In this document: positions 4,161 to 49,632 of the stretch, one piece after another
Layout of the letters: each line of letters begins with the position of its first letter
How positions within the stretch are numbered: position 1 is the first letter of the stretch
Assembly: GCF_963921235.1 (NCBI RefSeq)
Contig: NC_086108.1
Coordinates: 39,620,001-39,684,000 of the forward strand
Source: Mobula hypostoma
Lineage: Eukaryota
Direction: 5' to 3'
Length of the DNA: 64,000 nt
Position numbers and translations under genes: made by a program
The notes under the pieces: model-generated
The model's input: only the letters and a program-made list of their open reading frames with translations
Database searches by the model: none
What the model was told of the DNA's origin: nothing

Positions 4161-4827
4161 TTAGCGGAAGTTAGAGAAGTCAATGTTCATGCCATCAGGT
4201 TGGAGGCTACCCAGATGGAATATAAGGTGTTGTTCCTCCAACCTGAGTGTGGCTTCATCTTTACAGTAGAGGAGGCCGTGGATAAACATATCAGAATGGG
4301 AATGGGACGTGGAATTAAAATGTGTGGCCACTGGGAGATCCTGCTTTCTTTGGCAGACACAGCGTAGGTGTTCAGCAAAATGATCTCCCAGTCTGCGTCG
4401 GGTCTCGCCAATATATAGAAGGCCACATCGGGAGCACCGGATGCAGTATATCACCCCAGCCGACTCACAAGTGAAGTGTCGCCTCACCTGGAAGGACTGT
4501 CTGGTGCCCTGAATGGTGGTGAGGGGGGAAGTGTAAGGGCATGTGTAGCACTTGTTCCGCTTACAAGGATAAGTGCCAGGAGGGAGATTGGTGTGGAGGG
4601 AGGGGGGGGACGAATGGACCAGGGAGTTGCATAGGGAGCGATCCCTGCGGAATGCAGGGGGGGGGGAGGGAAAGATGTGCTTAGTGGTGGGATCTCGTTG
4701 GAGGTGGCGGAAGTTACGGAGAATAATATGTTGGACCTGGAGGCTGGTGGGGTGGTAGGTGAGGACCAGGGGAACCCTATTCCTAGTGGGGTGGCGGGAG
4801 GACGGAGTGAGAGCATATGTGCATGAA
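4161..4827 (-). CDS. Penelope C-terminal GIY-YIG endonuclease (truncated ORF, RT lost)
   Basis: GVIYCIRCSRCGLLYIGETRRRL...EH (GIY-CxxC-YIG), linker Cys motif CKRNKCYTC, C-terminal LQPDGMN. Confidence 0.88.
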
Positions 4828-5059
4828 ATGAGAAACATAACTTGTGCTGGAAATGTTGACTTGAATGTTCTGTATTATGTAATTCTGATTTTTTTTTAAT
4901 ATATAGGTAAAGTATACTTTGAAATTGAAATAAACCCATTTAAGGCCTCTTCTTACACAGGAGTTAATGAAGATGGCAGACGTGTCCCATTTCTATGCAT
5001 TTCCCTCAACTTCAAGGCAGCCTTTTCTGTGGTCACATTGATGATTGTTCATTAGGCTT

Positions 5060-5282
5060 TGTTGTGTATGTGGCCTGGTTACACAATAATGCTACTAATA
5101 AAAACGCTGGAGACGGGAGCTAAGGTTTATGGTTCTTTACTGGCAGAAACTGAACTCGGCACACCCGTACAGATCAATATGTGCCTAATGGCGCATGCTC
5201 AATACGTGCCTAATAGCGCATGCAACAACGTGTCCCTACAACATAAAGTAGTCCCTTATTGTACTGTAGGCCATACAGTACA
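5060..5282 (-). repeat. 3' LTR of the SUDS3-carrying element
   Basis: Direct repeat of 8403-8625, adjacent to the PPT. Confidence 0.92.
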
Positions 5283-5394
5283 CCCCTCCCCTTTTTATTT
5301 TAATGGTGCATCAACTGTTTATTTTACTGGGTCACTCTGCTAAACAAATATGTCTACCCTTAACATACAAACACCTGCCAGTTGTTTACTTAGT

Positions 5395-5478
5395 AACTTA
5401 ATAATATCAAATAATAACAAAGTAACATAATAATATCAAATTATAACAAAGTAATGTAATAATATCAAATTATAACAA
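5395..5478. repeat. AT-rich tandem repeat, ~29-bp unit x ~3
   Basis: taataatatcaaa(t/a)ataacaaagtaa repeated. Confidence 0.8.
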
Positions 5479-5877
5479 GCCTTTTTTTTTAACTTTTGGT
5501 CTAAGACCTATTTATAACTCAAGTCTCTGGGGGTGCGGGGGAGGGATCTTCTCTAGATTATCCAGCACTGAATAGGCAAATAAGTGTTCACTCTATTGTC
5601 TGGAATAAATTGAACAATCCACAAACTGGCAAGCTCCAGCCATGAAGAGTAGTCACCTCTATCTTGCAAAGATGAAAAAAGCAAAGTGAAATCCGTGAAA
5701 AGGTGAATGTTATTCTTAAAAATAACTGGGATGGCATTGGAAAGTGTCTTCAAATAGTGTGTTCTTCAGTCTGTCAATAAACTTGTTTGTTTCAATACAG
5801 ATTTCTATATAAAAGTCATGAACAGTTGACCCCTGAGCATAGGGAGTTAAGATGTGTGCCTCCACTTGCTAAGAGTT

Positions 5878-6814
5878 CTAGGCAGCAGATCACCTATGTA
5901 AAATGAAGGTTCCTCTGTGCAGCTGTCCCTAGATATTTACACATCTTTGTGCTGTCACTTGTCTTCCTTACCCATATCTCATTTGTTCCAACTGAGCTAA
6001 TTATACAGTCAATCTTCATATTCTCCTTAGATTCCAAATAGATAGCCTGACCTTTATGACACCATCTCTTATTATGATATAACTTTCCATCTTCTATTCG
6101 TGCTTCATATCTTTGTGCTGGTGATTCAGCAGGAGAGCTGGAAAGATGCTCAGGAGAAGACGGAGGTGTTGGTCTTTTTGGAAATTTAAGCTTATTGAGA
6201 GTTTGCAGATCTTCCATTATCTGTTCATCCATTAACAAGTAAGTTAACTGCGCAGGTGCAGGTTTTCGTCTTTTATCTGTATTTGGAACAGGGTCATTAG
6301 GTCTTCTCCTTAGTTTCCTAGCCATTATTAGCTTTACCTCCATAGAACCTCCTGTGAGTTTCATTGTTAGCCTCTCATTCTCAATCATCTTTTTCTTTTC
6401 TTGTAACTCAATCTTTTTATCTTCAAATTCCTTCACTGCTGCTTTCTTCTCTTTAATGCAATTCCTTTCCACTTGTTCTGTCTCCAGTTGAAGAAAAAGC
6501 TCTGCATTTCATGTTCTTTCCTTGTATTGTTGATCTAGTTTCTTTATTCTTTTCTGATACTCCTGCAAAATGTCTTCCTGTAACTGCTGTAGCTGTCTTT
6601 TGAGAGATGTCAATTTCTCCTGGTACATTTGCTCTTTTACTTCCAGGTAGTCTTCATCATCCTGCTTATTGACAATATCTGTCTCCCTTGCATCCTCTGT
6701 ATCTTCATCCAAGTTGCTGCCACGGATACTGCGTTCCTCCTCATTGTCAATGCTGTCTAGCTCCTCCTCGTCGTTGTAATAGTCGACAATGGGTGAGAGG
6801 AGAGCTGCGGACAT
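5878..6814 (-). pseudogene. SUDS3: Processed (intronless) SUDS3/SDS3 retrocopy, Sin3-HDAC corepressor subunit
   Basis: MSAALL...[21 protein letters not shown]...[16 protein letters not shown]...[12 protein letters not shown]...[10 protein letters not shown]...[13 protein letters not shown]...SAA* follows vertebrate SUDS3 end to end. Lesions: in-frame TGA at 6509-6511, ~8-codon deletion near 6400, +1 frameshift near 5928. Confidence 0.95.
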
Positions 6815-6829
6815 CTTCCCTGCCGAGCT

Positions 6830-7130
6830 GCCCTCCTTTGTTGACACATCTAGTGCCTTGATGGTGTGCCAATCCAGCTGGATTTTCCTGAGCCATTCAT
6901 GTCCCAGCAACAGTGGTCCTCTATTTTTCAGTACATAGAAGTGCAGTTGCTGTGTTTTATCACCATAGGTCATTGTCACTTTAATTTTGCCTTCGGGATG
7001 CACTTTTTTAAATCTTTAGTAGAAGTTTAGTTCGTTTCAGAGGTATGTGCAAAAACAGTCATTTGTAGTCATGTACACAGATCACTGTTGAAGCTGAGCC
7101 TGTGTCCAACTCCATTTTCAGTCTCACGCC
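6830..7130 (-). pseudogene. Gypsy aspartic protease (frameshifted); C-terminal half in frame with SUDS3
   Basis: MELDTGSAS (DTG at 7098-7106) and [26 protein letters not shown] in ORF 6509..7003. Confidence 0.85.
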
Positions 7131-7260
7131 CACCACTTGTGGAGTGATCCATATTACTCTTCGATCATCTGTCTCTTTCACGCTGTGAATTTGCCGACAA
7201 GACAATTCACTTTCATAGGAGTCGTTTTCATCAAACTGCTTTTATCAGGACTGCCTTCTT

Positions 7261-8023
7261 TCATTTTATGTACCTTCTTGTATTTTCCTTTCTGGGGTTT
7301 TTTGTTTCTCTGTATGTTGCCTTTTTCTGCTGTTTACTAGCTTTGCATACTCTGCCAATGTGGCCCTGTTTGCCACAGTTTCTGCATTTTTTGTCTTTAA
7401 ACCAACAGTCATCAGGGTCATGTGACCTGTTCCCGCAATGGTAACATTTCTTTCCTTCATTCCTGTTCAGTGACATTTTATTTGTGGCATATTCCAGAGA
7501 TTTTTGTTGTATCTCGGAAGCACCCTGTGCTGCTGTTTCCATTGATATTGCAATGTTGAGCGCTTTCTCGAATGTAAAGTCTCTTTCACACAGAAGCTTC
7601 TTCTGTGTGGTTTCACAGTGCATGCCACACACTAATCTGTCCCTCAATGCGTCCAATAGACCAGCTCAAGTTGACAATGTTCTGATAATTTGTGCAATTC
7701 AGCACAATATTCAGAAATGCTTTCATTTTTGCTCTGATTCCAATTGTGAAATTTAAATCTTTCAGCAATGACCAGTGGTTTGGGATTTAAATGCTGTTGG
7801 AGAGTGTCTACTATTTGCTTGAACGTTTTGTCAGCTGGCTTTTCAGGGGTTAACAAGCTCTGTAGCAGGCCGTATGTTTTTGCTCCCATAATGCTGAGTA
7901 AGACACTGGCTTTCTTTTCATCTTTAACATTGTTAGCCTCACAATGTAACTCCACTCTTTCAATGTAAATTGCCCAGTTTCAATGCCACTATCAAATGCT
8001 GTAATGGTTCCAATCATCACCAT
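7261..8023 (-). pseudogene. Gypsy gag (frameshifted) with two CCHC zinc knuckles
   Basis: PKPLVIAERFKF, LRDRLVCG, CYHCGNRSHDPDDC and CRNCGKQGHIGRVC across ORFs 7644..7955 and 7261..7656. Confidence 0.9.
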
Positions 8024-8402
8024 CTTTGTTATGTTAATTAAGCCCCGTTTTCCCCTTATTTTCCTTTTTGACTCACATGTCCTTTTTGCTAGCGCCATGA
8101 GTGCACTCCGTCTAGATGTGTGTGTGTTGCTCCTTTTTATCTCCCTTCTGGGGCAGACAGACGCTCAGCACCTGGGGGTTAGTGCCAGCTGTGGTCTCGG
8201 CTGGATGTGCTGCAGCTCTGTGTCTCGGTCTCCCGACGTTCCCGACCCCAGCTGTGCTCCCGCTTCCTTTCAGACTCATAGCCTCGCTCTGCCTCCTTCT
8301 CCTGCTCCTTGGCTCGTACCTTGCGCTCTTCTTCAGAGTGTCATTATCAATTAAAACATGGTGTTCTGATATGATGTAGGTTCATTAACCTCGTCGCCAA
8401 TT

Positions 8403-8625
8403 TGTTGTGTATGTGGCCTGGTTACACAACAATGCTATTAATAAAAACGCTGGAAACAGGAGCTAAGGTTCATGATTCTTTACTGGCAGAAGCCAAACTC
8501 GGCACACATGTACAGATCAATACGCACCTAATAGCGCATGTTCAATATGTGCCTAATAGCGCATGCAACAAGGTGTCACTACAACATAAAGTAGTCCCTT
8601 ATTATACTGTAGGCCATACAGTACA
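8403..8625 (-). repeat. 5' LTR of the SUDS3-carrying element
   Basis: Direct repeat of 5060-5282, followed on the minus strand by the PBS. Confidence 0.92.
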
Positions 8626-11600
8626 GGTTTTCACTCACTTCCCATCAACCCTTGTAAGAATGACACAGGAGTTGTGAACTTGGCACATAGTTCCCAACAG
8701 GAACTACACAGATCCTGCTTTAGTACAGGATTGTGTTTGCATAATGCTCGTAACAGATTTTAACCCAATTTACAAATATTTTCAGGAGACCCAATTGGGA
8801 TTACATAACATGGAGCACTTGTCCAGCACACCAAAAGAGGGAGAAAACCTCTTTCTGAGTATTTGTATTTCTCTCACAACTTCAACAAATTTGGCTGCTT
8901 TATATTCAGTCCCTTCATTTATCACGAATCTGCTGTGTAAAGTGTTGAGGGCCTATGGCATCTTATGGTATCCTAGGTGCCTGTGGCATCCAACTTCTTA
9001 GATTTTGCAAGCCTGAAAATTGCAACCATTAGTCTCCTGTTAGACAATCCTGTTTCCTTAATATATAACTCTCAACACCATGAACTCTCAACATCATGAG
9101 CGCTTAACTTCAACATTAACCTTTACCTGAAACCTTTTTGAATGCCTTTTGGAGTACACTACAGCTACTACAATCCTTCATCCACTCTGCTTGTTAGGGC
9201 CTTAAAGAATTCTCATTAATTTTTAGATGCTATTTCGCTTTTCAAAAATTGTGTTACCTCTCCGGAATTATAATTATGATCTCTCATATATTTTGCTTCT
9301 TCTTCCTTGCTATTGAATCCCAGCATTTCCCCAACAGCAAATATAAAGCTAACTGGTGTACAGTTTCCTGTTTTTTGCTTCTCCCCTGAAAAAGGGTGTT
9401 ATATTTAATATATTCCAATCTCCTTTGACCTTTCCGGAATCAAAGAATGGATTCACTATCTCTGTAGCTTCTTCATTCAGAGCCTAGAATGAAGGCCATC
9501 AAGCATAGAAGACTTGTTATCTTTTGGTTTCAGTAGCTTGCCTAGTACCTCTCCTCTTGTATTAATGTTGTTTCAAATTCTTTCCTCCCCTTGGCCCCTG
9601 ATTTTGCAAAATTATACCATGAGGAGAGAGAGATGTTTTTGAAGTCTCTATCATTTCCATTTTTTCCCTGTTACTAATCTATGTCACGTAGAAGCTGATT
9701 TATGAGGAAAGGTTGAACAGGTTGGGCCTATTCAATGTTTGGGATTCAGAAAAACATGCAGTGATCTTGATGAAATGTAAGATATTCCATGAGCGCTTCG
9801 TCATCTCATCCACAAGGTGGCCATTGTTTACCTTCTTACTTTGAGGAACCTCCTACAGTCTATTTTATATTTCTTGTTAGTTTATTCCCATAATTTTTTA
9901 CTCCTTCATTATGTTTTCATTGTATTTGGCTTCAGAAATTTTCCAAGTGTTCTAGTTGCTATTAATCTTTGAATTATTTTGTGTTTTTTTGACCTTGTAA
10001 CTACCCTTAGCTTCCTAATTTATCTACGGGTGGATCATTCTTTTCATAATCTTTATTTCTCAGTGAAATATCCTTTAGTTGAAATTTGTGTCATTATCCT
10101 TAAACGTATGGCACATCTTATGTATATTTTTCAATCTGTTTACTCAGTCCAATTTAACCAACACAGACTTCATATTTTTGTAATTGTCTGTATTTCTCTT
10201 AAAATTAAAGGAAATTTTTCACTTGTAATTTCCTTTGATACTTGATCTAATATTGCATGCCTGTTTTCACTTTTAATATCATTCAGTAAATTAATTATGG
10301 AATTAACAGCACATGAAAGAAAGTTTCTCATTTCTCCATTCAATAAACATTGATTATCAGCAGAAATTGACAGCAATGTATATAATTTAGAAACACTTTA
10401 CGAGAATTTAGCATTTCAGTTAAAAAAAATCTTAATATTGGGTATCTTGCTTCCTTGCTGCACTTATATCTTTCAAATGGAAAAACATTAAAGTAAATTG
10501 AATAAACATTTAACCATCTCTTACTACCATTTACCATTACAGTTAAATCATTCACTTATTTATTCCTGGATGGCCACGGTAAGGTGCCAAGTTCAACAAT
10601 CTATTTTGGTGAAAAAGAGGGAATCTAAAAGCATGATTTCAAGGCAGCTCTCTGTATTGAGCATAAAAGTGAGTTGGTTCTGATACACAGCCATATTATT
10701 CACAGGGTTATCAATTTCAGATTAATACCGAAATGAAGCCCACTTTTGGTCCTTATTTAGAGTGTTGCTTTTCTAATTTCCTCAGTTTCAATTTTTACTG
10801 CTTGTGCATAGTTAGGAATATGGGTTTTGATGTTTAACCGCTACTTTTGACTATATTTACAAAGAACAGTTGGTTTATGAGCTGTACAGGAAAGTCCTGT
10901 GGGGAAATGAACCAAAGAGACACATTTGAACCTCAGATGAAGGTCACTCTCCAACCGGGGTTTCAGAACATTGGCAGCTTTTTGTAAATCCCTGGATGCC
11001 ACTTTTTGCAAGAGGTGACGATACCTAGATCGGAAAAATCATCAGTGAACGGCTGGATATCTTACTCTCTTTATTTGTTTAACACTTAGAAAAATGATAC
11101 ATGCCAGATATGAGACATGGGTAGTAACAATTTTTGAAAAGGTTACCTCAACATTGTGTTTTATGGCCATATGTTTTGATTGTATATAGTTCGTCATCTG
11201 AAGATCTACAGATGAAACACTAAATGTATTACTTAATTTTACAATAGAATCAAATTGATTTTTAAGATGTTCAGTTTAGTATAATAATTCATTATTTCTA
11301 TAGTCTTAGTATAATCTGTGATATGTTCCAGCACTACACACTGCAAATGTATATAGTAAAGCAGGAATTTTCCTAAATTTTGGATCAAAGTGGAATGGCA
11401 CTCCACTGGACATCATTGTCATACTAATGTGCAAACTGTTGAACTTTGCCGTCACTAACTCTTTTAAGTACAAATGTGAGACCGAGGTATGCTAAAATGA
11501 ATATTTGAGAGGAAAACTTCTCTTCCACTTAAATTTCATGAGGTCTTTTGTTAATTTATCTTCCAAAGTGGCCCTTGCTGCTAGCTAACCAAAGAAGCAG

Positions 11601-18489: not shown

Positions 18490-19250
18490 GGTAATCTCCC
18501 TCTACCTATTAAATGCTCCCAATGGCATGCACCTCAGGTAACTTCTGTCAACCAAGTCTGGTTCCTGGTCTTCATATGTGACTTAGCTACTGAGCCCACG
18601 GAACCATATCTACTCACAAAATAATCTGCAGATGCTGGGGTCAAAGCAACACTCACAACACGCTGGAGGAACTCAGCAGGTCGGGCAGCATCCGTGGAAA
18701 TGATCAGTCAACGTTTCAGGCCGGAACCTGACGAAGGGTTCTGGCCCGAAGCATTGATTGATCGTTTCCACGGATGCTGCCCGACTTGCTGAGTTCCTCC
18801 AGCATGTTGTGAGTGAACCATAGCTACTGATAGGATAAGGGGCAAAGGTGGGTAACTGGCGCCATAAAACCAGTCCCTTTGGGCAGATAGAGCTCATAGA
18901 TTGTGGTTGGCAGCTTACCTAGGAGAAGAAAAGCTGATCTCAAACCTCCACTGCCTTGCAGCTATACCCACTCATGGGGAAGGCTTTAGGAGTAAACCCT
19001 GAAGAAAAATCCAGAGCTGGAGTCACTAAGACAGTTCTACATTGAGTTTAATACTGACTAGCAACTCCTGCAACGCCACTGGTGCCAAACTGTATCGGTC
19101 TCTGCCGTTCCTTTGGATTCATCAGCTGCTTGGAGAGGGGGAGCCTGCTGTATGGGCAACAGCTCTCTCTATATCATACTGCCCTGACTTGTGGATCAAG
19201 TTGATACCTGGGACGTAACATCTATGCTAAACCCCGGCCAGTGGAGGGCC
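18490..19250 (+). repeat. Interspersed repeat (unclassified, LINE-UTR-like); second copy at ~29075-29620 in opposite orientation
   Basis: gcaactcctgcaacgccactggtgccaaa (~19061) is the reverse complement of tttggcaccattggcgttgcaggagttgc (~29288). Interrupted by the hairpin insert at 18615-18814. Confidence 0.7.
18615..18814. mobile_element. 200-bp palindromic Penelope-derived non-autonomous element with hammerhead-like core
   Basis: ~77-bp inverted arms at 18651-18727 and 18737-18814, CTGACGA at 18728-18734, 14-bp TSD gaaccata(t/g)ctact at 18601-18614 and 18815-18828. Confidence 0.85.
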
Positions 19251-24115: not shown

Positions 24116-26486
24116 CGACTCCATGACTCCTTTGCATTGACTGCCTGTTGTTATGATATTTTCCACAATGGAAACATTTAACCTGAATCAAACCCTCCAT
24201 AATTTAAAATAATTTTCAATCTGGACATCCTTGAAGGCTGAAGGATGTATAGATCTTTTCTTGAATATGCTTAGCTTTTCTGAAGCGTATAGCTTTGCAC
24301 CTCTCCTATTACCCTTCCACTTCCTGCCACTTCTTCACTGGCTCCATCTTTTCCAAATGACAGAGTAAATGGAACTGTAGGCATTGCTCTAAGATGGCAA
24401 GATCAAGGTTTGATGCAGGTGCAACATACGTTCTGCACTTTCCAATTCTACCCCTCACAATGTTGCACCATAGATTGCTGTAACAACAAGAAACCACAAA
24501 CAAGTGCTTACTTTCTTTTTAGCTTGTGGTCTATGGTGCAACTTTTAGTGATTGGTGTGTTTGCACTCTGAGATCCCTCCATTCTTCTCTCACATCTCTC
24601 ATATGTCAGGTGACTTCTCTATTAGAGCCAGCCCTGAAATGGGCCCTTTAATCCAATGACTCCACACCACCTGAAACACGCCCATTTTACACCCAGTCCC
24701 ATGTTATTCACCCCATGTTCTCACAGCCCATCAGAATGGTTGATAGGGATATTGGAATTAAAAATAAATTAGGAGAGCTCAAAAAGTAGTTTATTGGGCT
24801 GGTCACACAGAAGCCCATTTTACAATGGTATGGGGCAACTGTTTTGAACTGAACAGTGAAGAAATGGCTCACTGCATACCAAAAAAGTCTGGGGAGATGA
24901 AGGCATGTGATTCATTACATTTACTGTACACAATGTGTGACCTATCATGAGGAAAACAAAGAAACAACAGCTCAAATGGAATCTCTAATGGAAAGTTTGC
25001 CAAAAACTCTACAAAGTACAACCCATTTACTCCAGCGATAAGCATTGGCAGGGTCACTTAAGCATAACTTTGTTTGAACTGTTCTGACAGAAACTGAAGT
25101 CTCATTTGATATAATTACCGTCGTCGATGTTGAATCTCTTGATGCTGCTTCAGTTATTTTCTCCATAGGCAAGCACTGTATCTTCCCTGTTGTCGACAAT
25201 TCAGAAAAGTTTGTGCAATGAACAGTTCAGTACAAAATGGCTAAACAGTAAAGGCCACACATTTTTAGCTCTGAAGTCTTGTTTAGTTTGTAACTGACTA
25301 AATCTAATGACAAATATGACAATCTGAGGATCTGACTCTAGTGACAAGTATCTCCTTCTCATCCTTCATTCACTCAAGGCTTAAAATTGGGTCATGTAAG
25401 GTGGTTTATTACAACAGTATTGTACATTCAGAAATCATTATTTAGTAGTACAAAGTACAATAACAAATATTTCTGGGTCATTTTGTGATACTTTGGAAAT
25501 CAAATTTGTCTTTGTCTGACATGAGTTTCACATGAGCATCAGATGTGATTTCAATATCAAATGCACATCAAATTCCATCTACCTCCTTGCAACTTTCCGC
25601 TTGGAGCCTGGTTCACAAAATTATTCCGGCTTGTCTTTTGCCACTAATGGAAGTAAATATTTCCAAGATGCAACGCCATACCAAGATCCCACAAAGATAT
25701 ATATTTATTCCTATTTTTGTTTACCCTTGCAATGCAAAAATCTCTGTGTGTTGTTTCCAATTTTAACATGTAATTGCATGTGTTTCCAGCAGATGGAACC
25801 TCATCATGGAGATGGTAAGCTTATTTTGGTGAACTTCAAGCAGATTAACAAATTAGTAAACGTTTCTAGAAGGTATAAAGGAAGGCAGAGCAATTTAATG
25901 AAATGGGGTATTTCTATACAGTACAATTACATCTAATTCCTACACAGATGATTGAATTCTTTTGCAAAGGGAATTGCTGGAACATGGAGAAGTGGAATAG
26001 CACCTTTCCTCACTGTTGTTGAGGCTTCCATTGCTATTGTTTTCAGCATTACCCACTTACTTATTTTTTTAAAATCCAAATAGCAGCCATGGTTTTACTT
26101 CCTTCAAGATGATATTAGTTCTTTCCCCTCTTCATGAGGACTATAGAGAGTGTGTGCAGGGGCTTGGGCAGGCTGCTGACTTTCACTGTAGTGATGCCTT
26201 CTGTGCTTCCCATCATGTCTTGGGCAATCTGCGTTCTATTTAGGACCTCACACTGAACAAAAATTAAGAAATGACAAATATGGAGCACGTTCCAAATAAT
26301 CCGCGTACAATTGCGTTCTATAGCTAGTCTGCATTTGTAGTCGAGTGCAACCGCCATGCACAGCCTGAAGACAGGTCCCACAGATTTCGTGCACTCTTTG
26401 CAATGTAACTAAAGATCAAATTGCCTTTAAAATGTTCAAGGCATTCTGAAAGTTATTTGAAAGATGCTGCATTAATGCACAATTTA

Positions 26487-28696
26487 TCAAGGAAAAGGAT
26501 AGAATCAGAGAGGACAGGAAAATTTTTAATTGGGGAAGGGCAAATTATGAGGCTATAAGGCTAGAACTTGCAGGTGTGAATTGGGATGATGTTTTTGCAG
26601 GGAAATGTACTATGGACATGTGGTCGATGTTTAGAGATCTCTTGCAGGATGCTAGGGATAAATTTGTCCCGGTGAGGAAGATAAAGAATGGTAGGGTGAA
26701 GGAACCATGGGTGACAAGTGAGGTGGAAAATCTAGTCAGGTGGAAGAAGGCAGCATACATGAGGTTTAGGAAGCAAGGATCAGATGGGTCTATTGAGGAA
26801 TATAGGGAAGCAAGAAAGGAGCTTAAGAAGGGGCTGAGAAGAGCAAGAAGGGGGCATGAGAAGACCTTGGCGAGTAGGGTAAAGGAAAACCCCAAGGCAT
26901 TCTTCAATTATGTGAAGAAAAAAAGGATGACAGGAGTGAAGGTAGGACCAATTAGAGCTAAAGGTGCGAAGATGTGCCTGGAGGCTGTGGAAGTGAGCGA
27001 GGTCCTCAATGAATACTTCTCTTCGGTATTCACCAATGAGAGGGAACTTGATGATGGTGAGGACAATATGAGTGAGGTTGATGTTCTGGAGCATGTTGAT
27101 ATTAAGGGAGAGGAGGTGTTGGAGTTGTTAAAATACATTAGGACGGATAAGTCCCCGGGGCCTGACGGAATATTCCCCAGGCTGCTCCACGAGGCGAGGG
27201 AAGAGATTGCTGAGCCTCTGGATAGGATCTTTATGTCCTCGTTGTCCACGGGAATGGTACCGGAGGATTGGAGGGAGGCAAATGTTGTCCCCTTGTTCAA
27301 AAAAGGTAGTAGGGATAGTCCGGGTAATTATAGACCAGTGAGCCTTATGTCTGTGGTGGGAAAGCTGTTGGAAAAGATTCTTAGAGATAGGATCTTTGGG
27401 CATTTAGAGAATCATGGTCTGATCAGGGACAATCAGCATGGCTTTGTGAAGGGCAGATTGTGTCTAACAAGCCTGATAGAGTTCTTTGAGGAGGTGACCA
27501 GGCATATAAATGAGGGTAGTGCAGTGGATGTGATCTATATGGATTTTAGTAAGGCATTTGACAAGGTTCCACACTGTAGGCTTATTCAGAAAGTCAGAAG
27601 GCATGGGATTCAGGGAAGTTTGGCCAGGTGGATTCAGAATTGGCTTGCCTGCAGAAGGCAGAGGGTGGTGGTGGAGGGAGTACATTCAGATTGGAGAATT
27701 GTGACTAGTGGTGTCCCACAAGGAACTGTTCTGGGACCTCTACTTTTCGTGATTTTTATTAACGACCTGGATGTGGGGGTAGAAGTGCGGGTTGGCAAGT
27801 TTGCAGACGACACAAAGGTTGGTGGTGTTGTAGATAGTGTAGAGGATTGTCAAAGATTGCAGAGAGACATTGATAGGATGCAGAAGTGGGCTGAGAAGTG
27901 GCAGATGGAGCTCAACCCGGAGAAATGTGAGGTGGTACACTTTGGAAGGACAAACTCCAAGGCAGAGTAAAAGTAAATGGCAGGATACTCGGTAGTGTGG
28001 AGGAGCAGAGGGATCTGGGGGTACATGTCCACAGATCCCTGAAAGTTGCCTCACAGGTGGATAGGGTAGTTAAGAAAGCTTATGGGGTGTTAGCTTTCAT
28101 AAGTCGAGGGATAGAGTTTAAGAGTCGCGATGTAATGATGCAGCTCTATAAAACTCTGGTTAGGCCACACTTGGAGTACTATGTCCAGTTCTGGTCACCG
28201 CACTATAGGAAGGATGTGGAAGCATTGGAAGGGGTACAGAGGAGATCTACCAGGATGCTGCCTGGTTTAGAAAGTATGCATTATGATCAGAGATTAATGG
28301 AGCTAGGGCTTTACTCTTTGGAGAGAAGGAGGATGAGAGGAGACATGATAGAGGTGTACAAGATAATAAGAGGAATAGATAGAGTGGATAGCCAGCGCTT
28401 CTTCCCCAGGGCACCACTGCTCAGTACAAGAGGACATGACTTTAAGGTAAGGGGTGGGAAGTTCAAGCGGGATATTAGAGGAAGGTTTTTTACTCAGAGA
28501 GTGGTTGGTGCGTGGAATGCACTGCCTGAGTCAGTGGTGGAGGCAGATACACTAGTGAAGTTTAAGAGACTGCTGGACAGGTATATGGAGGAATTTAAGT
28601 TGGGGGCTTATATGGGAGGCAGGGTTTGAGGGTCGGCACAACATTGTGGGCCAAAGGGCCTGTACTGTGGTGTACTATTCTATGTTCTATGTTCTA
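26487..28696 (+). mobile_element. Young 5'-truncated CR1 LINE with near-intact RT
   Basis: ORFs 26576..27970 and 27997..28629 are separated by one frameshift. Motifs KSPGPDG, NYRPVSL, DFSKAFD, GVPQG, KFADD; (gttctat)n tail at ~28676-28696. Confidence 0.95.
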
Positions 28697-31208: not shown

Positions 31209-31308
31209 TCAGTCCTGATGAAAGGTCTTGGCCCGAAATGTCGACTGTACTCTTGTTCCATAGATGCTGCCTGGCCTGCTGAGTTCCTCCAGCATTTTGT
31301 GTGTGTTG
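31209..31308 (+). mobile_element. Penelope pLTR fragment with hammerhead motif, inserted in the outer Gypsy
   Basis: cagtc CTGATGA aaggtcttggccc GAAA tgtc gactg at 31210-31247, followed by the gatgctgcctggcctgctgagttcctccagc pLTR motif. Confidence 0.8.
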
Positions 31309-32419
31309 TTGGTCAGTTTGTGTTGGTTTTCAGTGGCCTCTGAAATGGGCAACAGCTGACCAAAATGCCTTCTCCAGATGTTGTGGTTACTAGTTTGCAC
31401 TGTGTACAACACGGGACCAGCTTGTGCCACCATCGTCACAGGTATCCACTTTGGTCCAGAGATGCAGTTCTGGGCAAGTACTCTCTTTCCTGCTGTGAAA
31501 CTTCTGACCTTTGTTTTGGCACATCTCTCTGCTTGGGTTTTCTTTTCATTTAGCATAACTTGTTTCGTATTTGGGGGTCTAAGCAGGTTAAGGCAGATGC
31601 AAAGCTGTCTTTTCATCAGTGCAGTGGCTGGAGCCATTTTGGTGGTGGTGTGAGGTGTGTTGCAGAATATCAGCAAGAAAGTGCTAAGACACTGGTTGAG
31701 GGATCCACTTTCCAATTAAGTCTTGAGGGCTTCTTTCATTGTACGAATCATTCAGCAAGGCCATTAGTGGCTGGATGATATGATGCTGACTTACATGCCT
31801 TGAACTCTTTGGAAAGGAGTTGTGGGCCATTGTCACTCAAGCTGTTGAGGAAGCCCAAAACGGCTAAAAATGGAACAGAGCTCCTCAATGCATTTTTCAG
31901 ATGTAGTGCTCTTCATGATGGCAATCTTGGGCCATTTGCTTGTGCATCCATTATGACCAAGAGCATGTGGCCTTCCACAGGTCCTGCAAAATCTATGTGC
32001 ATACTCTGCTATGGTTGTCACAACCACAGCTTTGGCAGCGCAGTAGATACGGCAATTGCACTTGTGAATATGCATGTGTCAGCTAATTATTATTTAACTG
32101 CCATAGTATTTAACTCCATACTTGTCGTCATAGTGTTTGTCGAGACTTGGACAGAGCACAGCAATGCTTCGCTACTTGTTTGCATTCGGCCTTTCCTGAG
32201 AAATTGGACTGTCGAATCAACTGACTCTGAAGACTAGTGGTATTCGTTTAATGTTTAGATAATCTTTTCAGCTGCAGTGTAGGCTTCAATTTTTATTTGA
32301 GAGTTTTGGTTAATGGCTCTATTTGGCCTAGCATTTATTGTTTTATTTTCCTTTTAACACGGTTCACATTAAAGTCTGTGAACTATCGACCTGCTTCAGT
32401 GTCTCTCACTCTGCACTTG

Positions 32420-33162
32420 CTTTCTTTATTAATCTTTTTATTGATTTAAAAGGAACATAAATACAAACAAGAGGAGAATTATCTCAAATATATATATCAA
32501 TAACAATAAAAACAGAGATTGAAGTAAACATTATCAAAATCATACATGGTATTACGCTATTATATAATATATAATAAAAAAGAAAACAGCAATTCTCCTC
32601 TTATCAGTTCATGAAGAGGAAAAAAAGCTTTGAATTTTAAATGAAGGAAAAAAACCCCACTACACTATACAAAAAAAAGGGACTGGGCAGTCCATTCTGA
32701 GGATACGACCAGAACAACAGACTTTCTGATCAAATCTAAAACTCCAAAAAAAATTGGAAGAGTAATAAATCAAATTAAATGAAAATATTGAATAAAAGGT
32801 CACCAGATTTGCTCAAAATTTAAAGGATGTTTCAAATGTCCGACTTATTATTTTCCCTAAACTTAAACAGGACTTAATAGAGGAAAGCCAATAAAAGACA
32901 GTAAGTGGATTAGAATCTTTCCACTTCAGTAAAATGGCTCTCCTAGCCAATAAAGTTGAAAAGGCTATCATACGTTGAGCAGAAATAGGAATATTCCCTG
33001 TTTTTGATGGTGTAATCCCAAATATTGCCGTAAGTAACTTAGGTTGTAGGTCCAGATCCAGGACTTTTGATAATGTTTTAAAAACATCTCTCCAAAAACT
33101 GTCTAGCTTTATACAAGATCAAAACATACGAGTTAAAGTGGCCACCTCACTATTACATCTGT
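32420..33162 (-). mobile_element. L1-clade LINE 3' fragment
   Basis: Minus strand gives CNSEVATLTRMF*SC..FWRDVF (zinc knuckle remnant) and AFSTLLARRAILLKWK, then an AT-rich 3' UTR with AATAAA and an A-rich end. Confidence 0.7.
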
Positions 33163-36148
33163 AATAAAAGATCTCTTTCTGTCATGGCTCTGGAGCTCCA
33201 ACAGCTCAGGACAGTCTGAACAGTCCACCAACATCCGAATGCTGCTCGGACCTCCTGTATTTTGTATCATATGGATGTGGGGGTAGTAAAAGAGACCAAC
33301 ATTGCATTCATCTAGTAGCCAGGGATGGAATGCCCACACATAGATCAAAAATTGACATCAAGAGATGATAATCTATTGGTAGTGTAATTCATCGACCAAA
33401 GAATTGATGGAATTTCTTAGCTCTAAAGACAATTGCGAGTGCTTCCCGCTCATTTTGGGCACAGTGGCTTTCTGCCTTGCTTAAAGGTCTTGATGTGAAA
33501 GTGATTGGGTGCTCTTCACCTGATGGCATGATTGTGTGAGATGACTGCTCCTACACCATAGGGTGATGCATCACAGGCCAACTGTATGAGCAATAATGGG
33601 TTGAAGTGTGTGAGTGCTTCAGATTGTAACAAAGCTGTTTTGGCTTTTTTAAAATCATCTTCATACTGATCTGTCCACTGCCAGTGTGTTGATTTATTTT
33701 AAAAATCATGCAGTGGTTTCAGCATGCTGGCTAGGTTAGGAACAAACTTTGCATAGAATGTTAGTAATCATAAGAAAGATTTAATTGACTTATGTTTTCT
33801 GGTGATGGAGACTCCACAATTTCCTCCACATTTGCTGGTGCTTGTGAAGCCCTGAGCTGTGATTACATGGCCCAAATGTTCAAATGAAGGTCCAAAGAAC
33901 TCACACTTGCCCTTCTGGACTCTTAGCTCATACTACTTGAGTCTTTGTAGTGTGGCATCCAAGTTTTGTAGCTGCTCATGGCCACCTTTCCCAGTAAGAG
34001 TAAGTCATCCCATCCAAATAACATTACACCTGTCAACCCGCTCAGGATCTGGTCTATTGCTCTTTGAAAAAGTGCAGGAGCCGAGGTGATGCCTTCAGTA
34101 CTAGAACATTGCTTGATAAATCACTATAGTCAACAGTTCCTGTGACTCTGGCTCCACGTGCATCTGCAATTACGCTTGACACAAGTCAGTCTTGCTAGAT
34201 GTCTGTCCTCTGGCAAGCCCCGCAAAAAAGTAATTAATGAGGGAAAGATGGTATTGTTCAGCTGTAAGAACCAGGTTAATTGTTACTTTGAAGTCTTCAC
34301 AAAGACTTAAAGGTCCGTCTCTTTTTAGGACAGGAACTACTGGAGTTGCCCACACTAGTTCCAATAACTTACCCTGGACCAGTCTTCCCAATTCAGCCTG
34401 TATTTTTGGTTTGAGGGTGTATGGAGCAGCTTTTGTCTTCAGGCATTTGGGGGTTATGTTGGGCGTAACAGTCATTCCTTTTAAACTGTGTAGTCCTCTG
34501 TTGAATACTTCTGTGTGTTGCTTCAATACTTCTTGTAGGCCAGTGCTCCCACCAATCAAGTCCACTTTATACCAGTTGAGTTTCAGCTACTCCAAACACA
34601 AGGGTCCCAGAAGTGCTGGATAACTACCTTTAACAATGTACAGTGGAAGTTTCTTTTTCTCTTTATTAATCTCCACTGTAAGATGTACTACTCTGCTCTC
34701 TGGAATTACCTCACCAGTATAAGCCTTTATATTCAACCTTGTCCCTTTTGGGGTGAGATGCTGTAATTTCTCCTTGTAAACTGTCTCTGCAGCACCCTGA
34801 ATCCTCACTGTGACCCTATACAATTGCAGGGTCACCCAATAGCCATTTTTGTGTTCTGAAACAAATAAAACATGCAAAGCTTCTTCAACTAAGGAACAAG
34901 AGTCATTCAGTCTGTCCTTAGTATGCTCCATTCTGTTCACAAGTTTCCTTTTGTTTTTCCAAAAGTCGCTTTATTACGGTGTTTTTGGTTGACAGTGTCT
35001 TTTTACTTTTACGGGTGTGTTCATTGTGTCCCTTTTTGCCACAGCTTCGGTAAACAAAATCCTTATACCAGCATTCTTTTGCTGAATGCCCAGTTTTGCC
35101 ACAATGGTAACATTAATTGCCAATAGGTGTTTTATTCTTAACTTCAGTAGAAACTTTATGACTTAGGAAGATGCACTTCATAGCTTTGCATCTTTAGCTG
35201 ACATCTCCATAGGTGTACCAATCTCAATTGCCTTCTGTAATGTTAGTCTGTCTTCTGTAAGCAAATGTTTCTGAATTGCCTCACTACACAGACTACATAT
35301 GAGTCTATCATGTAAAGTGCCATTCAGTGACTGCCCAAAATCACAGTGTCAAGACAGTTGCTTCAGCACCACCTCAGACTATGATATGGACTCGCCTTCC
35401 TCTTGATTCTTTTTACCAGATCTAAACCTCTCAGCAATAATCAAAGTTTTAGGTGCTGTGTACATACACCTACTGATGCTTCTGGACACATCTTCAGTGA
35501 TGTTCCTGGAATCATCGGGTGTTTCGGGTCTTTCAACATCATACAACCTCCTCCAGGTGACCCAGCCGGGGCTGATCAGACCCCAGCTTGTGTCCAGATG
35601 GCTAGCTACTTATGACTCCATGGCTCCCCTCTTTTGAGCCACAGCCATTTTGAGGCCCTCTCTGCCGCATCGGTGGTACTACGGATGGCTCTCCTCTTCC
35701 TCTCTCCCTCGATGCCCAAAATGCTGAAGACTCTAACTGAGGAACAGGCTACGAATCCCCTACAACCAAACCTCCACTGGGAGACACATCGCTCTCCATC
35801 CAGCCTGCTGCCTCAATGCTCTTTGGTTCTTTGAGTAAGATGTTTTGGAGCCTTCTTTCTCCTCTTCTCCGAAGCATTCAGCTGCGATACTGATGTGGTA
35901 AACCATGTATATATGTTGTAAATCGGTTACCTGTCTGGACACACCCCTCTGCTGACTGCCCCTGTGGCTCCTCCCACAGAGTCCTGTATAAAGGTGTTCG
36001 CCTTGCCCCTCCCCCTCAGTCCGGGGGCAGACACTCACTGTGGAGGTCGTATTGTACAGCGAATAAAACCCTTTCAGCATTTTACCAAACCTCAGTCTTT
36101 TGGAGTAATTGAAGGTGCTTCAATTTTATTCACTGTACGTTTTAAAAC

Positions 36149-36973
36149 ATGGAACAGTCCCTGAGACCAGACAAATTAGACGTCGATCCACAAACACCTG
36201 AAGCTGGAAACGCTCTCAAACTCTGGCTGGCCTGCTTCGAAGCATACCTAGAGGAGGTTAAAGCGACCGACCCTGTAGCGAAGCACAGAGTTCTACACTC
36301 CAGGGTCAGTCCATGGGTCTATTCGCTGATCAGAGACCAGCCGAATTACGACGGCTTGATGAGTGCTCTCAAAAGACAATACCTGCGGCCGATAAACAGC
36401 ATCTATGCTCGGCACCGCTTAGCGACATGGCAACAACGGCCCGGGGAATCGAGTGCTGAGTTTGTCCGGGCCCTACAGACACTCGTGCGAGCCTGCAATT
36501 GCCAGGAGCTGACGGCGGCGCAGCATGCAGAACTCCTAGTGAGAGACGCCTTCGTCACGGGGACCAGGTCAGTGTACGTGAGCCAGCGGCTGCTGGAAAA
36601 AGCCGATCTTACCCTAAGTTCGGCGATCGAGCTGGCTGATACGTTGGAGGCCGCTCTGCATAACTCTGAGGTTCTCCAGGCACGCGATCCCCCGATGGCC
36701 TCGTGGGCGCCGCAGACCCCGCAACCCGCCAGCGAATCGACCTCGGCTGCTGCCAGTAGTGAGTCCGCGAAGTGCTACTTCTGCGGACTGAAGAAGCACC
36801 CCCGGAAACGCTGCGCGGCCCGACAAGCTACCTGCTCCAGCTGCGGAAAGAAGGGCCACTTCGCCAAGGCCTGTAAGTCAAAACCGCGAGCGGGATCGAG
36901 CAGCGCTGCGTGCAAGACGTGGGGGTCGCCATCTTGCCTGTCACCATCTTCCCTGCACACTGCCACCACGTGA
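36149..36973 (+). CDS. Gag with two zinc knuckles; the stop is probably a point mutation in a single gag-pol ORF
   Basis: CYFCGLKKHPRKRC and CSSCGKKGHFAKAC. The frame continues past the TGA into the protease ORF at 37031. Confidence 0.88.
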   Translation: MEQSLRPDKLDVDPQTPEAGNALKLWLACFEAYLEEVKATDPVAKHRVLHSRVSPWVYSLIRDQPNYDGLMSALKRQYLRPINSIYARHRLATWQQRPGESSAEFVRALQTLVRACNCQELTAAQHAELLVRDAFVTGTRSVYVSQRLLEKADLTLSSAIELADTLEAALHNSEVLQARDPPMASWAPQTPQPASESTSAAASSESAKCYFCGLKKHPRKRCAARQATCSSCGKKGHFAKACKSKPRAGSSSAACKTWGSPSCLSPSSLHTATT

Positions 36974-37030
36974 GAGACATGGGGGCGGCCATCTTGGTCG
37001 GCGCTACCTCCCACCGCCTACGACCAACGG

Positions 37031-38944
37031 GTGCTCACGGGGCACCCCACCACGCCGGACCAAGACAGCGACCCCACCCTGGCTTCCGTGACCCTCGACC
37101 AAAGCGCTCCCCACCAGCTAGCAAGGTCAATGATGGACATCCTGGTGGAGGGGCGCAGGACAAGCTGCCCGTTTGACACAGGCAGCACGGAGAGTTTTAT
37201 CCACCCGGCCACGATGCAGCATTGTGGACTCGTGATACGGCCGGTAAGTCAGAGGGTCACCATGGCCTCCGGGTCGCATACAACAGACATCCGGGGGGGG
37301 TTGTGTAGCGACACTAGTGGTGCAGGGCACAGAATATCGGGACTTTACGTTACTGGTCTTGCCTCAACTGTGTGCCCCTGTGCTGTTGGGGTTGGACTTC
37401 CAGAGCCACCTGAAAAGCGTGACAATGAAGTATGATGGGCCCCTCCCGCCAATTACTGTCATAAATCCCCTGTTTTGTAGAGATATGTTACATACCCCGC
37501 TACTGACCACACACACACACCGACCCGCGCATCCCACCCAACATCATGCCAACTGCCACACTACCGACACCACTTGCGGCCTCTCCACCCTCAGGATCCC
37601 TCCCCCACCGCTGTTCGCCAACCTGACCCCGACTGTAATTCTGTGGCAACTAAAAGCAGGAGGTACAGCGCGGGGGACAGAACTTTCATTAAGTTGGAGG
37701 TGCAGCGGCTGCTCAGGGAGGGGGTCATTGAGGCAAGCACAAGTCCTTGGAGGGCGCAGGTGGTCGTTGCTCGGAACGGGGAGAAGAATAGGATGGTCGT
37801 GGACTATAGCCAGACCATCAATAAGTTCACGCAGCTCGACGCGTACCCTCTACCCCGCATCGCGGATATGGTCAATCAGATAGCACAGTACAAGGTGTAC
37901 TCGACCATAGACCTAAAATCCGCTTACCATCAGCTCCCCATCCGCCGGGAGGACCGCCCTTACACTGCCTTCGAGGCGGACGGCAGGCTTTATCAATTCC
38001 TGCGTGTCCCCTTTGGTGTCACGAATGGTGTATCTGTCTTCCAGAGGGCAATGGACCGGATGGTGGACCAGTGCCAACTGAAGGCCACGTTCCCATACCT
38101 GGATAACATCACCATCTGTGGTCACGACCAGCAGGATCACGACAACAACCTCCAAAAATTTCTCCAAGCGGCCAAATCTTTCAACCTCACCTATAACAAG
38201 GACAAGTGTGCATTTGGGACCACCCGACTTGCTATCCTTGGGTGTGTCGTGGAGAATGGAGTCATTGGCCCTGACCCCGACCGTATGCGGCCCCTGTTGG
38301 AACTCCCTCTTCCCAATACCCTCAGAGCCCTCAAAAGGTGCCTGGGCTTCTTTTCATATTACGCCCAATGGGTCTCTAACTATGCAGACAAGGCCAGCCC
38401 CCTGGTCAAGTCCACCACATTCCCCCTCTCTGCCAAGGCCCGCGCGGCCTTCAACCGCATAAAAGGGGACATTGCCAAAGCAGCAATGGATGCGGTGGAT
38501 GAGGCCATTCCCTTCCAAGTAGACAGTGACGCCTCTGACTTTGCACCGGCTGCTACCCTCAACCAGGCAGGAAGACCAGTGGCATTCTTCTCCCGTACCC
38601 TTCAAGGCCCTGAAATTCGGCACTCTGCGGTAGAGAAAGAGGCCCAGGCCATAGTGGAAGCTATAAGGCACTGGAGGCACTATCTTGCCGGCAAAAGGTT
38701 CACCCTGCTAACTGACCAGCGCTCAGTCGCATTCATGTTTAATAATCAGCAGCGGAGCAAAATCAAAAATGATAAAATTCTGAGGTGGAGAATCGAACTC
38801 TCCACCTACAACTATGACATCATGTACAGGCCTGGGAAGCTCAATGAGCCCTCCAATGCCCTATCCCGGGGAACATGCGCCAGCGCGCAGATTGACTGGC
38901 TATATGCCCTACATGTAGACCTTTGCCACCCGGGAGTCGCCTGA
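37031..38944 (+). pseudogene. Protease, RT and RNase H (two frameshifts, ending at a premature stop)
   Basis: FDTGSTESF; RMVVDY, DLKSAYHQ, PFGVTNG, YLDN; DASDFA, EKEAQA, TDQ. Frameshifts at the G-run ~37293-37300 and near 37630. Confidence 0.9.
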
Positions 38945-44446: not shown

Positions 44447-44534
44447 TATATCCTTTTGCAAAATCAGAGTGTCCTCATTACAAACTACTCTTCCATCTAT
44501 TTTCATAAAATTGACAAACTTCTAAACCTTACAA

Positions 44535-44832
44535 CACATACAAAATGAACAGTTGACACTTTGGGTCATGACCCTTCATCAAAGAATACCTAATCAGACA
44601 GTATATTTACAATATTATTCAAACCTTACTGAAATATTAAATACACAACAATAAAGAATGCTTATTAGTTTGTAATATTTACCGATGGAGGAATTCAACC
44701 AGTGTCCTGATGAAGGGTCACAGTCCGAAACGTCAAATGTTTATTCCTCTCCATAGATGCTGCCTGACCTGCTGAGTTCCTCCAGCATTTTGTGTGTGTT
44801 GCCTTGGATTTCCAGCATCTGCAGATTTTCTC
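44535..44832. mobile_element. Inverted Penelope pLTR pair flanking a captured local sequence
   Basis: Degenerate minus-strand hammerhead at ~44553-44582. Plus-strand CTGATGA agggtcacagtcc GAAA cgtc at 44707-44734, followed by pLTR sequence. Confidence 0.7.
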
Positions 44833-48480: not shown

Positions 48481-49124
48481 TGGCTGATCTGGTCATGGAC
48501 TTGCTCATTTTTCCCATAACTCTTAATTTCCCTGCTATGCAAAAATCTATCTACTGTGAGAAAGGATCTAGTGCTTTCCTGGCGTATATGACAAATAAAC
48601 TCTTATCAGGCTTCCAGCTGGGTACAGTTATCGATTTTAACCAACGTTTTGATGACAAACTGCCATCTTCATCACCAGTGATGGCCTGGGCATATCTAGT
48701 TTCTGCTATCCCACTTTGTTTACAATCAAATTCCAGTTCTTACTTAGAGTGAAACCTTCACCTTTGAGGTACTGGAGGTAAAGAATTTTAACAAAAATGA
48801 AGTGTCACTGAGTGGCGCCATTGATGCCCTTGCTGCCACTGAAAATGCTTGTTGAGAACTATCTATTAATACTCTTAGCTTTTCAAAGCAATATTAGGTT
48901 TATGCATTTCCATTCTCTGCCACTAAAGGTATCCTTTGCCTTGCAGAGATTGCACTAGTAAAATACATATTGTGCATTTGTGTTTGATAATTTTTCAATA
49001 AAGTTTTTAACCAATGCATGATCTCCATGCATCTTAAAAGAACACCTTTTTTGTCAGTCTGTCTTACAGAAAGTATGACATTCTTATCAGTGATATCGTG
49101 CCAATTCCAGAGCGAGTTCCGAAC

Positions 49125-49432: not shown

Positions 49433-49632
49433 TTGCCGCCTCTTGGTGAGGCCGAGGTCAGGGCCCGGCCCTGGGCCGCCCGCCGCCACCGCACCATCGG
49501 CAGCCTGCAGCCAGTGCGAGGCAGCGGCGGGTGGAGGGGGCGAGGCCCAAGGCCTGGAGCTGGCCTGCCGCTCATCGTGACCGCCGCCGCCCACCCCCGC
49601 CACCTGGTACGGCCAGCGCAGCAGCGAGCTGC

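Follow-up and report, generated by a model that had tools for sequence, protein, structure and literature searches.

SUDS3 sequence in place of pol in a decayed, non-autonomous Ty3/Gypsy element of a devil ray

Acutely transforming retroviruses carry a host mRNA that replaces replication genes in frame, and they need a helper. LTR-mediated retrocopies of animals were surveyed by Tan 2016 (PMC5131818); in that survey, switch sites overlap by a median of 6 bp, the transcript share has a median of 26%, and the species set is without cartilaginous fishes. The same paper describes maize Bs1, an element with captured pieces of three genes, present in 1-5 copies and reported to be functional. The Mag lineage of Ty3/Gypsy elements is characterized (PMC3286476) by short LTRs, a 5-bp target site duplication (TSD), a Ser- or Leu-type primer binding site (PBS), two CCHC knuckles and the absence of env.

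The element described here is located in a 64,000-nt stretch of Mobula hypostoma DNA, henceforth the window. It resembles the animal cases of Tan 2016 (PMC5131818) in that an mRNA replaces part of an internal ORF between the LTRs, in its short switch-site overlap (7 nt versus the median of 6 bp), and in its 3' truncation, lack of poly(A), recopying as a non-autonomous element and possible multi-gene chimerism. It differs from them in the whole CDS span, compared with mostly partial retrocopies, and in dozens to hundreds of probable copies, compared with few sites in the re-amplified cases. Captured host exons, switch points common to all copies and secondary retroposition are likewise found in Bs1 (PMC5131818), but the ray family has far more copies and shows no sign of function. 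Like acutely transforming retroviruses, the SUDS3 element has a host mRNA in frame where replication genes would be and would need a helper; unlike them, it is without env, an infectious stage or evidence of selected cargo. The mechanism is already known (Tan 2016); it is the scale in a vertebrate that is unusual.

Anatomy of the element

The whole element ranges from 5060 to 8625 on the minus strand, on which all its features reported below are located. It is delimited by two LTRs of 223 bp (5' LTR, 8403..8625; 3' LTR, 5060..5282) that both start with TG and end with CA and are 91% alike, with 20 differences in 223 positions (17 transitions and 3 transversions; K2P 0.098). The flanking TSD reads AAACC on the left (8626..8630) and AAGCC on the right (5055..5059) and is thus equal at four of five positions. 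A PBS-like stretch (TGGCGACGAGG, 8389..8399) and a polypurine tract (PPT, 5283..5296) are present in the sequence as well, so that the LTR pair, PBS, PPT and near-TSD of an earlier note on this DNA are all recovered. The PBS presumably matches the 3' end of tRNA-Ser. The sole tRNA that ARAGORN reports in the window (38779-38869) sits within the pol of another element. The copy is old, its age being expressed in relative terms only; a published shark rate (PMC10587355) is per generation.

The gag region (7261..8023) contains frameshifts and stops. Its Pfam matches (Retrotrans_gag, E 0.0025; zf-CCHC, E 0.00043) are both under Pfam's cut-off, and two CCHC zinc knuckles are visible in the translation. 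It is followed by a broken aspartic protease region (6834..7241) with an LDTGS motif near 7110, which shares 67% identity over 67 aa with P0247, a Gypsy Pol of Chanos chanos. The gag and protease proposed in the earlier note are accordingly there, but both are interrupted by stops and frameshifts. P0247, the closest Pol, has its domains in the Gypsy order PR-RT-RH-IN; annotated as 'K02A2.6-like', it is a Pol that we take to belong to the Mag lineage. The parts of pol left in the window element are the protease and then the integrase end, in that order, the latter as a C-terminal remnant (...PQRLEL plus stop, 5512..5552) that is documented by translation and contig ends. A tblastn search with P0247 agrees with the reported absence of RT, RNase H and the integrase core inside the element. 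The window element is non-autonomous; RT, RNase H and integrase are not encoded. TG..CA LTRs, PBS, PPT, a short TSD, a CCHC gag and an aspartic protease together characterize it as Ty3/Gypsy. The likeness to the Mag lineage comprises short LTRs, a 5-bp TSD, the assumed Ser-type PBS, two CCHC knuckles and no env; the 223-bp LTRs and the 5-bp TSD with one mismatch fit the Mag values of table 1 in PMC3286476, for an element without RT. Blastn detected no other pieces of the SUDS3-carrying family in the 64-kb window, and the fragments of pol at other places in these 64 kb have no DNA similarity to it.

Between PBS and gag, translation reveals a leader piece (8179..8340) that consists of a 53-codon Arg/Glu/Ser-rich C-terminus with its stop, and this may be a second captured piece of host mRNA. 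It may be ACIN1-like. The C-terminus of Acinus is rich in RS/RE/RD (PMC5441173). Searches with the 53-aa low-complexity piece gave no identifying match: the best Atlas values were 0.80 and 0.76, representative proteins yielded two chance repeat proteins only, the PDB had no match, and the best Pfam hit was Transformer (E 2.1). In run X18 the leader has a depth of 889 at 8226, with loose ends of 255 and more letters at 8215 and 8323.

The processed SUDS3 CDS (5878..6814) is intronless, extends from the ATG at 6814 to the native stop at 5880-5878, and is 83% identical to SDS3 of Mobula birostris. The full span of the previously noted CDS therefore holds, whereas its frame is not intact: it is disrupted by a premature stop (6511-6509), a 24-nt in-frame deletion of eight codons (6404/6405), a +1 frameshift near 5927 and a second premature stop (5892-5890). 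The second SUDS3 piece by itself was missed by Pfam. An additional 19 nt of the SUDS3 5' UTR were captured, and ORF 6509-7015 joins the protease end to SUDS3 in frame. The captured 3' UTR is its proximal part of about 325 nt (5553..5877), with a common 15-nt deletion at 5723 in the contigs, instead of the formerly assumed 390 bp or so up to the A9 tract. This tract (5490-5482) had been taken for the end of the mRNA, but it comes after the stop of the integrase, is DNA of the element and belongs to the element's own 3' untranslated region (5297..5511).

Junctions between pol and SUDS3

The 5' switch point could be narrowed down by the ends of public-run contigs; the runs treated as RNA are so classed by a guess of the tool. 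SUDS3 mRNA contigs from two putative RNA runs cease matching at 6833, and pol-type DNA contigs cease matching at 6827 (loose ends in 3, 8 and 13 contigs). Past 6827 the latter, judged by eye, keep to the frame of pol and resemble P0247 directly after its protease. Both contig types overlap in 7 nt (GGGCAGC, 6827..6833). On the other side of the cargo an SUDS3 mRNA contig continues for 995 letters unlike the window, and pol-type contigs rejoin at 5532, in the integrase end (7, 11 and 7 contigs). The 3' switch is located near 5553, inside the 3' UTR, with a weak overlap of only about 2 nt by eye. Altogether, about 2.7 kb of pol were replaced by about 1.28 kb of mRNA. The 5' junction is bridged by seven of the 31 contigs listed, each with its own substitutions and a single-copy-like depth; the 3' junction is bridged by one contig of depth 12 from a run guessed to be RNA, which would bear on co-transcription from the LTR but may be DNA carry-over. 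Depth over 5518-5745 drops 3- to 10-fold, and some contigs connect 5533 with 5770 and carry additional letters of the integrase end, which documents a second 3' junction and hence a 3' structure that is not common to all copies.

These junctions bear directly on the alternative that a LINE made an SUDS3 retrocopy inside a resident element, which lost its pol separately and was perhaps amplified later as a hybrid. LINEs are abundant in batoids (10.64898/2026.10.27.761883) and in the window, and an A9 tract lies downstream of the cargo. However, the cargo stops within the 3' UTR without a tail and the A9 follows the integrase stop; no duplication surrounds the cargo, whose ends join pol sites 2.7 kb apart with the 7-nt overlap at the 5' side. 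A single copy with LINE-type hallmarks around SUDS3, the configuration named in the earlier note as evidence for an ordinary retrocopy, is not what the data show. The LINE scenario is very improbable and largely refuted. Capture by template switching, as originally proposed, is supported by two junctions that both lie in pol sequence, by the lack of poly(A) or a duplication at the cargo, and by the 7-nt overlap.

Copies, common deletion and fate of the cargo

The 24-nt deletion, which lies between 6-nt direct repeats, is a derived character of the copies. The corresponding eight residues are missing at eight 'SDS3-like' loci, four in Mobula hypostoma, three in M. birostris and one in Hypanus sabinus, which are located on different scaffolds. 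Among 239 SDS3-family proteins covering the site, the short form is found in 10 (the window, the eight loci and one extra isoform) and the long form in 229; no parental SUDS3 has the deletion. Two substitutions, P187T in nine of 10 copies and S271G in all eight that reach the position, are absent from the 10 parental sequences compared. In the tree the copies are grouped together at one end of a branch, in a star-like pattern (88/90; 84% of bootstrap trees), a support under the starred level from a bootstrap that had not settled. The 24-nt piece has a depth of 0 of 5999, 6014 and 3039 in the DNA contigs of three organisms and of 210/210 in the RNA run, the DNA test being imperfect because the parental exon, present in single copy, was likewise not seen. 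P0127 (marmot), which ranked first in the deletion search through a duplicated segment and not through the deletion, was rejected.

The copy number is high. Flanks have a depth of 10-19 and the SUDS3 bins reach 340-1000 times the flanks, a summed contig depth that overcounts and is not a copy number; averaged over single contigs, the depth reaches up to 36-55 times that of the flank, which provides a floor. RefSeq lists at least nine 'SDS3-like' loci in three rays. In P0128 SUDS3 is preceded both by the leader sequence and by the peptide of the protease end, and P0128 and P0006 indirectly place the RefSeq copies between LTRs. The copies likely number dozens to hundreds, in at least two ray families. 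The common deletion, absent from the parents, and the 340-1000x depth suggest that a single master probably multiplied in the manner of a non-autonomous Gypsy element. The suggested mobilization as a unit is consistent with the many loci that have the same junction and the derived deletion. Common junctions and deletions would fit any single origin, including segmental or tandem duplication of one chimeric locus, but depth falls to the single-copy level directly outside both LTRs, the copies reside on many chromosome-scale scaffolds, and the window copy has its own TSD, which renders duplication without retrotransposition a negligible option.

The cargo of the window differs from its parent in 29 of 242 core residues (12.0%). 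At the observed DNA divergence of 6.7% the neutral expectation is 13.9% (10.2-18.0) residue change; the parents of three other batoids show 0 differences in 234-250 residues. In the SUDS3 copies seen, the strong constraint of the parent is lost and divergence fits neutral decay. Given two stops, a frameshift and 12.0% change compared with 13.9% under neutrality, the window SUDS3 copy is dead and not a functional retrogene under purifying selection. The earlier idea that the cargo matters as part of the silencing machinery finds no support in this dead copy with its neutral-like divergence, and nothing shows that the cargo helped.

A useful cargo in the master, followed by decay after insertion, nevertheless deserves consideration, although we regard it as unlikely. 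SUDS3 without eight residues of the dimerization coil would have disturbed Sin3/HDAC silencing and thereby aided the spread, its product being cut from a Gag-protease fusion or made from spliced RNA. Nearly the whole CDS was captured, it is in frame with the protease end, and the common deletion is in frame within the coiled coil of PDB 4ZQA, sparing the Sin3-binding segment (2N2H) and the capped Tudor domain (7SXI); yet for the junction as for the deletion, the chance of being in frame is one in three. Only three protein changes shared by the copies separate them from the parent, which equally fits a short master lineage. Near full-length frames exist in several RefSeq copies, but a few are expected among hundreds, the probability of no new stop being 0.11-0.35 for a divergence of 3-7% if indels are disregarded. 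No annotated Gag/PR-SUDS3 fusion was found, and one of nine candidate longer proteins has a protease end (P0247), which is weak evidence. In run X1 the chimeric depth is about that of the protease and three contigs only continue into pol, but the depth of run X18 at the deletion site is entirely parental. No public run contained half of the query words and no RNA run was listed, a result that is uninformative on expression. Roles of Sds3 in dimerization and pericentric heterochromatin (PMC8800102) are compatible with a useful product; terminal divergence is neutral. Slightly more doubtful still is a specific counter-defence, in which SUDS3 lacking the eight coil residues and retaining the Sin3-binding helix, encoded at the former site of RT and released by the element's protease, poisoned germ-line Sin3L/HDAC and let the element become more numerous than its autonomous relatives in both stingrays and devil rays; the possibly ACIN1-like leader would then indicate a two-gene capture from one network, in which ACIN1 is a partner of SAP18, a Sin3 protein.

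Origin of the family and SUDS3 retrocopies in cartilaginous fishes

The best explanation, with a probability of about 0.87, is a decayed non-autonomous ray Ty3/Gypsy element with spliced SUDS3 where RT, RNase H and integrase would be expected, derived from one capture through two template switches and amplified in trans. An SUDS3 mRNA would have been co-packaged with element RNA, and two switches of the reverse transcriptase, likely in one event, would have put SUDS3 in the place of pol. The 24-nt deletion may have arisen in the master lineage by RT slippage between the 6-nt repeats. RT and integrase were probably supplied in trans by pol-bearing relatives, and the cargo would have been carried along neutrally by cis signals that had stayed intact, namely LTRs, PBS, PPT and gag region. 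An intronless mRNA in one LTR element, ORF replacement, microsimilarity, lack of poly(A) or duplication and dispersed copies with derived changes are the features of Tan 2016, and all are found in the ray family.

A preprint (10.64898/2026.06.26.734816) counts SUDS3 as one of the five genes with the most retrocopies in cartilaginous fishes; in the passages considered, it attributes the repertoires to expression in the germline, to non-LTR elements and to selective filtering afterwards, and LTR carriage of SUDS3 is not mentioned. SUDS3/SDS3 is absent from the main text of the Mobula genome preprint, and our literature search found no published report of an SUDS3-carrying LTR family. Hundreds of the 'retrocopies' behind the SUDS3 excess may accordingly represent one capture event, and such a single origin is a testable alternative to repeated formation and selective retention. 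If there was one event, retrocopy counts and gene-family annotation would be biased. The many copies of one master make selection on a captured chromatin factor directly testable from assemblies, and the family represents a large, clean example, in a vertebrate, of an LTR element that captured a gene and was then amplified massively together with it.

Anatomy and decay of the SUDS3 element

Judged by its best protein matches, which are to Mobula, the window comes from a ray. The minus-strand Gypsy-type element at 5060–8625 is enclosed by a 5' LTR (8625–8403) and a 3' LTR (5282–5060) of 223 bp each, both on the minus strand, which differ at 20 positions, mostly by transitions (K2P 0.098), and its flanks read AAACC and AAGCC. 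It has a PBS-like 11-mer (8399–8389, minus), a purine tract (5296–5283, minus), a leader of 380 nt, a disrupted gag that contains two CCHC knuckles, and a broken protease. The latter is 67% identical over 67 residues to P0247, a Gypsy Pol protein of Chanos chanos with the domain order PR-RT-RH-IN, and is followed downstream by an intronless SUDS3 in the same frame. The lack of RT, RNase H and integrase claimed in the earlier note is borne out, as tblastn with P0247 finds no core of these domains in the element. The SUDS3 coding sequence, described there as whole, does extend over its full span (6814–5878), but the frame is dead: the minus strand exhibits a premature stop (6511–6509), a 24-nt deletion (6404/6405), a +1 frameshift near 5927 and a second stop (5892–5890). 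The supposed captured 3' UTR up to an A9 tract had to be abandoned. The UTR ends near 5553 and is followed on its 3' side by the terminal codons of an integrase with their stop (to 5512, minus); the A9 tract comes only after this remnant and is thus element DNA.

The window contains further repeats. A younger, unrelated Gypsy element (35893–40338, plus) has 231-nt LTRs that are 98% alike and broken reading frames for gag, RT, RNase H and integrase. Decayed pol remnants of the broad P0247 type (5–1174 and 31308–34790, both minus; 28–39% identity) have no DNA similarity to the SUDS3 element. About 200 bp from the latter lies a GIY-YIG-type 3' fragment (4161–4874, minus) with a depth of ~10^6 in DNA runs, which we take to be Penelope-like. 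LINE ORFs are located at 50234–53620 (plus; an open frame of 1129 codons with endonuclease and RT) and 26450–28626 (plus; a further RT fragment), and long inverted repeats at 43977–44705 and 18642–18815 (MITE-like arms; SINE-like copies head-to-head). An exon-like stretch of the glyoxalase superfamily (49094–49645, plus; E 2e-11) presumably represents methylmalonyl-CoA epimerase.

Junctions of the cargo

The junctions were mapped by aligning contigs from six of the 24 listed sequencing runs to the element. On the 5' side, long SUDS3 contigs from two runs presumed to be RNA lose their match at 6833, where the loose end is visible in one mRNA contig. DNA contigs of the pol type (3, 8 and 13 in three organisms) follow the element from its protease side to 6827 and then diverge; as judged by eye, their loose ends continue the pol frame and are P0247-like just behind the protease. 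Given these end points, the 7 nt at 6833–6827 are common to both templates. On the 3' side, a SUDS3 mRNA contig extends for 995 letters without likeness to the window, pol-type contigs rejoin the element at 5532 (7, 11 and 7 contigs), and the overlap at the switch is only ~2 nt by eye. The positions on both sides therefore place ~1.28 kb of mRNA (19 nt of 5' UTR, the CDS and ~325 nt of 3' UTR) where ~2.7 kb of pol would stand. Neither a tail nor a duplication surrounds the cargo at this locus. Its junctions represent the pattern of two template switches that Tan et al. 2016 (PMC5131818) describe for LTR retrocopies.

The family is not uniform, since contigs from three organisms join 5533 to 5770 with extra letters of the integrase end and document a second, shorter 3' junction type. 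Depth drops 3- to 10-fold across 5518–5745. The shorter variant probably arose by later recombination with a pol-bearing RNA.

Copies and age of the family

Among 239 SDS3-family proteins covering the deletion site, 229 have the long form with the eight residues matching the 24-nt deletion. The ten short forms are that of the window and those of nine further records, which represent eight loci and are all annotated as 'SDS3-like'. These loci lie on scaffolds of 189.7, 162.2, 152.4 and 98.2 Mb in M. hypostoma, of 67.9, 64.4 and 52.5 Mb in M. birostris and of 69.7 Mb in Hypanus sabinus; the parental SUDS3 genes are located on 39-Mb scaffolds in both Mobula species. A ninth locus (P0224, 252-Mb scaffold) begins behind the deletion site and carries P187T and S271G. 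P187T is found in nine of ten copies and S271G in all eight that reach this residue, and both are absent from the 10 parental sequences compared. In the tree, a moderately supported branch (88/90) separates the copies from the other sequences, and their topology is star-like. The copies likely go back to one captured master. The M. hypostoma model P0128 (XP_062921164.1) exhibits the leader peptide and the protease-end peptide of the element ahead of SUDS3 and hence shares its 5' junction. Its leader (window 8314–8200) is joined directly to the protease-end/SUDS3 junction (6857–6814), skipping gag, which points either to splicing of a subgenomic RNA or to a copy with an internal deletion.

The depth of the 24-nt piece is 0/5999, 0/6014 and 0/3039 in DNA contigs, an imperfect test as the parental single-copy exon is also unseen, and 210/210 in a run presumed to be RNA; the 15-nt deletion in the UTR (5723) shows the same pattern. 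Six-nucleotide direct repeats bracket the 24-nt deletion, which would be the expected product of RT slippage between them. Depth amounts to 10–19 outside the LTRs and to 340–1000 times that over the CDS, a summed value that overcounts. Mean depth per contig reaches 36–55 times the flank, which implies a minimum of dozens of copies sharing identical 31-mers; the copy number is likely in the hundreds.

Both LTR-flank junctions are without differences in run X1, which may stem from the source organism, and show 6/282 and 12/702 differences in run X4 from another organism. The two LTRs have about five times the divergence of the X4 junctions, indicating that the insertion long predates this split. 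If the Hypanus copy descended vertically, the capture would be older than the divergence of devil rays and whiptail stingrays.

Fate of the cargo and scope of the finding

The cargo of this copy has no function. Its core differs from the parent at 29 of 242 residues (12.0%), and a neutral simulation at 6.7% DNA divergence (versus mRNA contigs), which leaves out CpG effects and indels, expects 13.9% (10.2–18.0). Other copies diverge by 7–9%, and the parents of three other batoids show no differences over 234–250 positions. With so many copies, chance would leave a few frames open. A dominant-negative cargo in the master lineage could be read from the in-frame protease–SUDS3 fusion and the likewise in-frame 24-nt deletion, which hits the dimerisation coil (PDB 4ZQA) and spares the Sin3-binding segment (2N2H) and the capped Tudor domain (7SXI), parts whose roles are outlined in PMC8800102. 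Every one of these points is explicable by chance, and we regard this scenario as very unlikely.

The leader may harbor a second capture, which we offer as a lead. The stretch 8340–8179 (minus) reads as an Arg/Glu/Ser-rich C-terminus with a stop. Its depth in the putative RNA run X18 is 889, against 50–260 for the greater part of gag. At 8215 and 8323, contigs leave the element with loose ends of 255+ letters that show cleaner RS codons and intact CpG (by eye). Depth and loose ends thus suggest a host mRNA as source, and the sequence would correspond to the 3' end of an RS/RE-rich coding sequence. Sequence searches with the stretch gave no identifying match; we presume a resemblance to the end of ACIN1. 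ACIN1 has an RS/RE/RD-rich C-terminus, and its complex includes the Sin3 protein SAP18 (PMC5441173).

The SUDS3 element is real and its mechanism known, while scale and cargo are unusual. Secondary copying and multi-gene chimeras are already covered by Tan 2016 (PMC5131818), where Bs1 is described with 1–5 copies. Our literature search found no paper describing the SUDS3-carrying family. A 2026 preprint (10.64898/2026.06.26.734816) places SUDS3 among the top five retrocopied genes in cartilaginous fishes and attributes the repertoires to expression, to non-LTR elements and to filtering by selection. A SUDS3-carrying LTR family would be a simpler cause for the excess of SUDS3 retrocopies. The other top genes named in the preprint, MIPOL1, SDF2L1, SLU7 and ZNF276, may be LTR cargo too.
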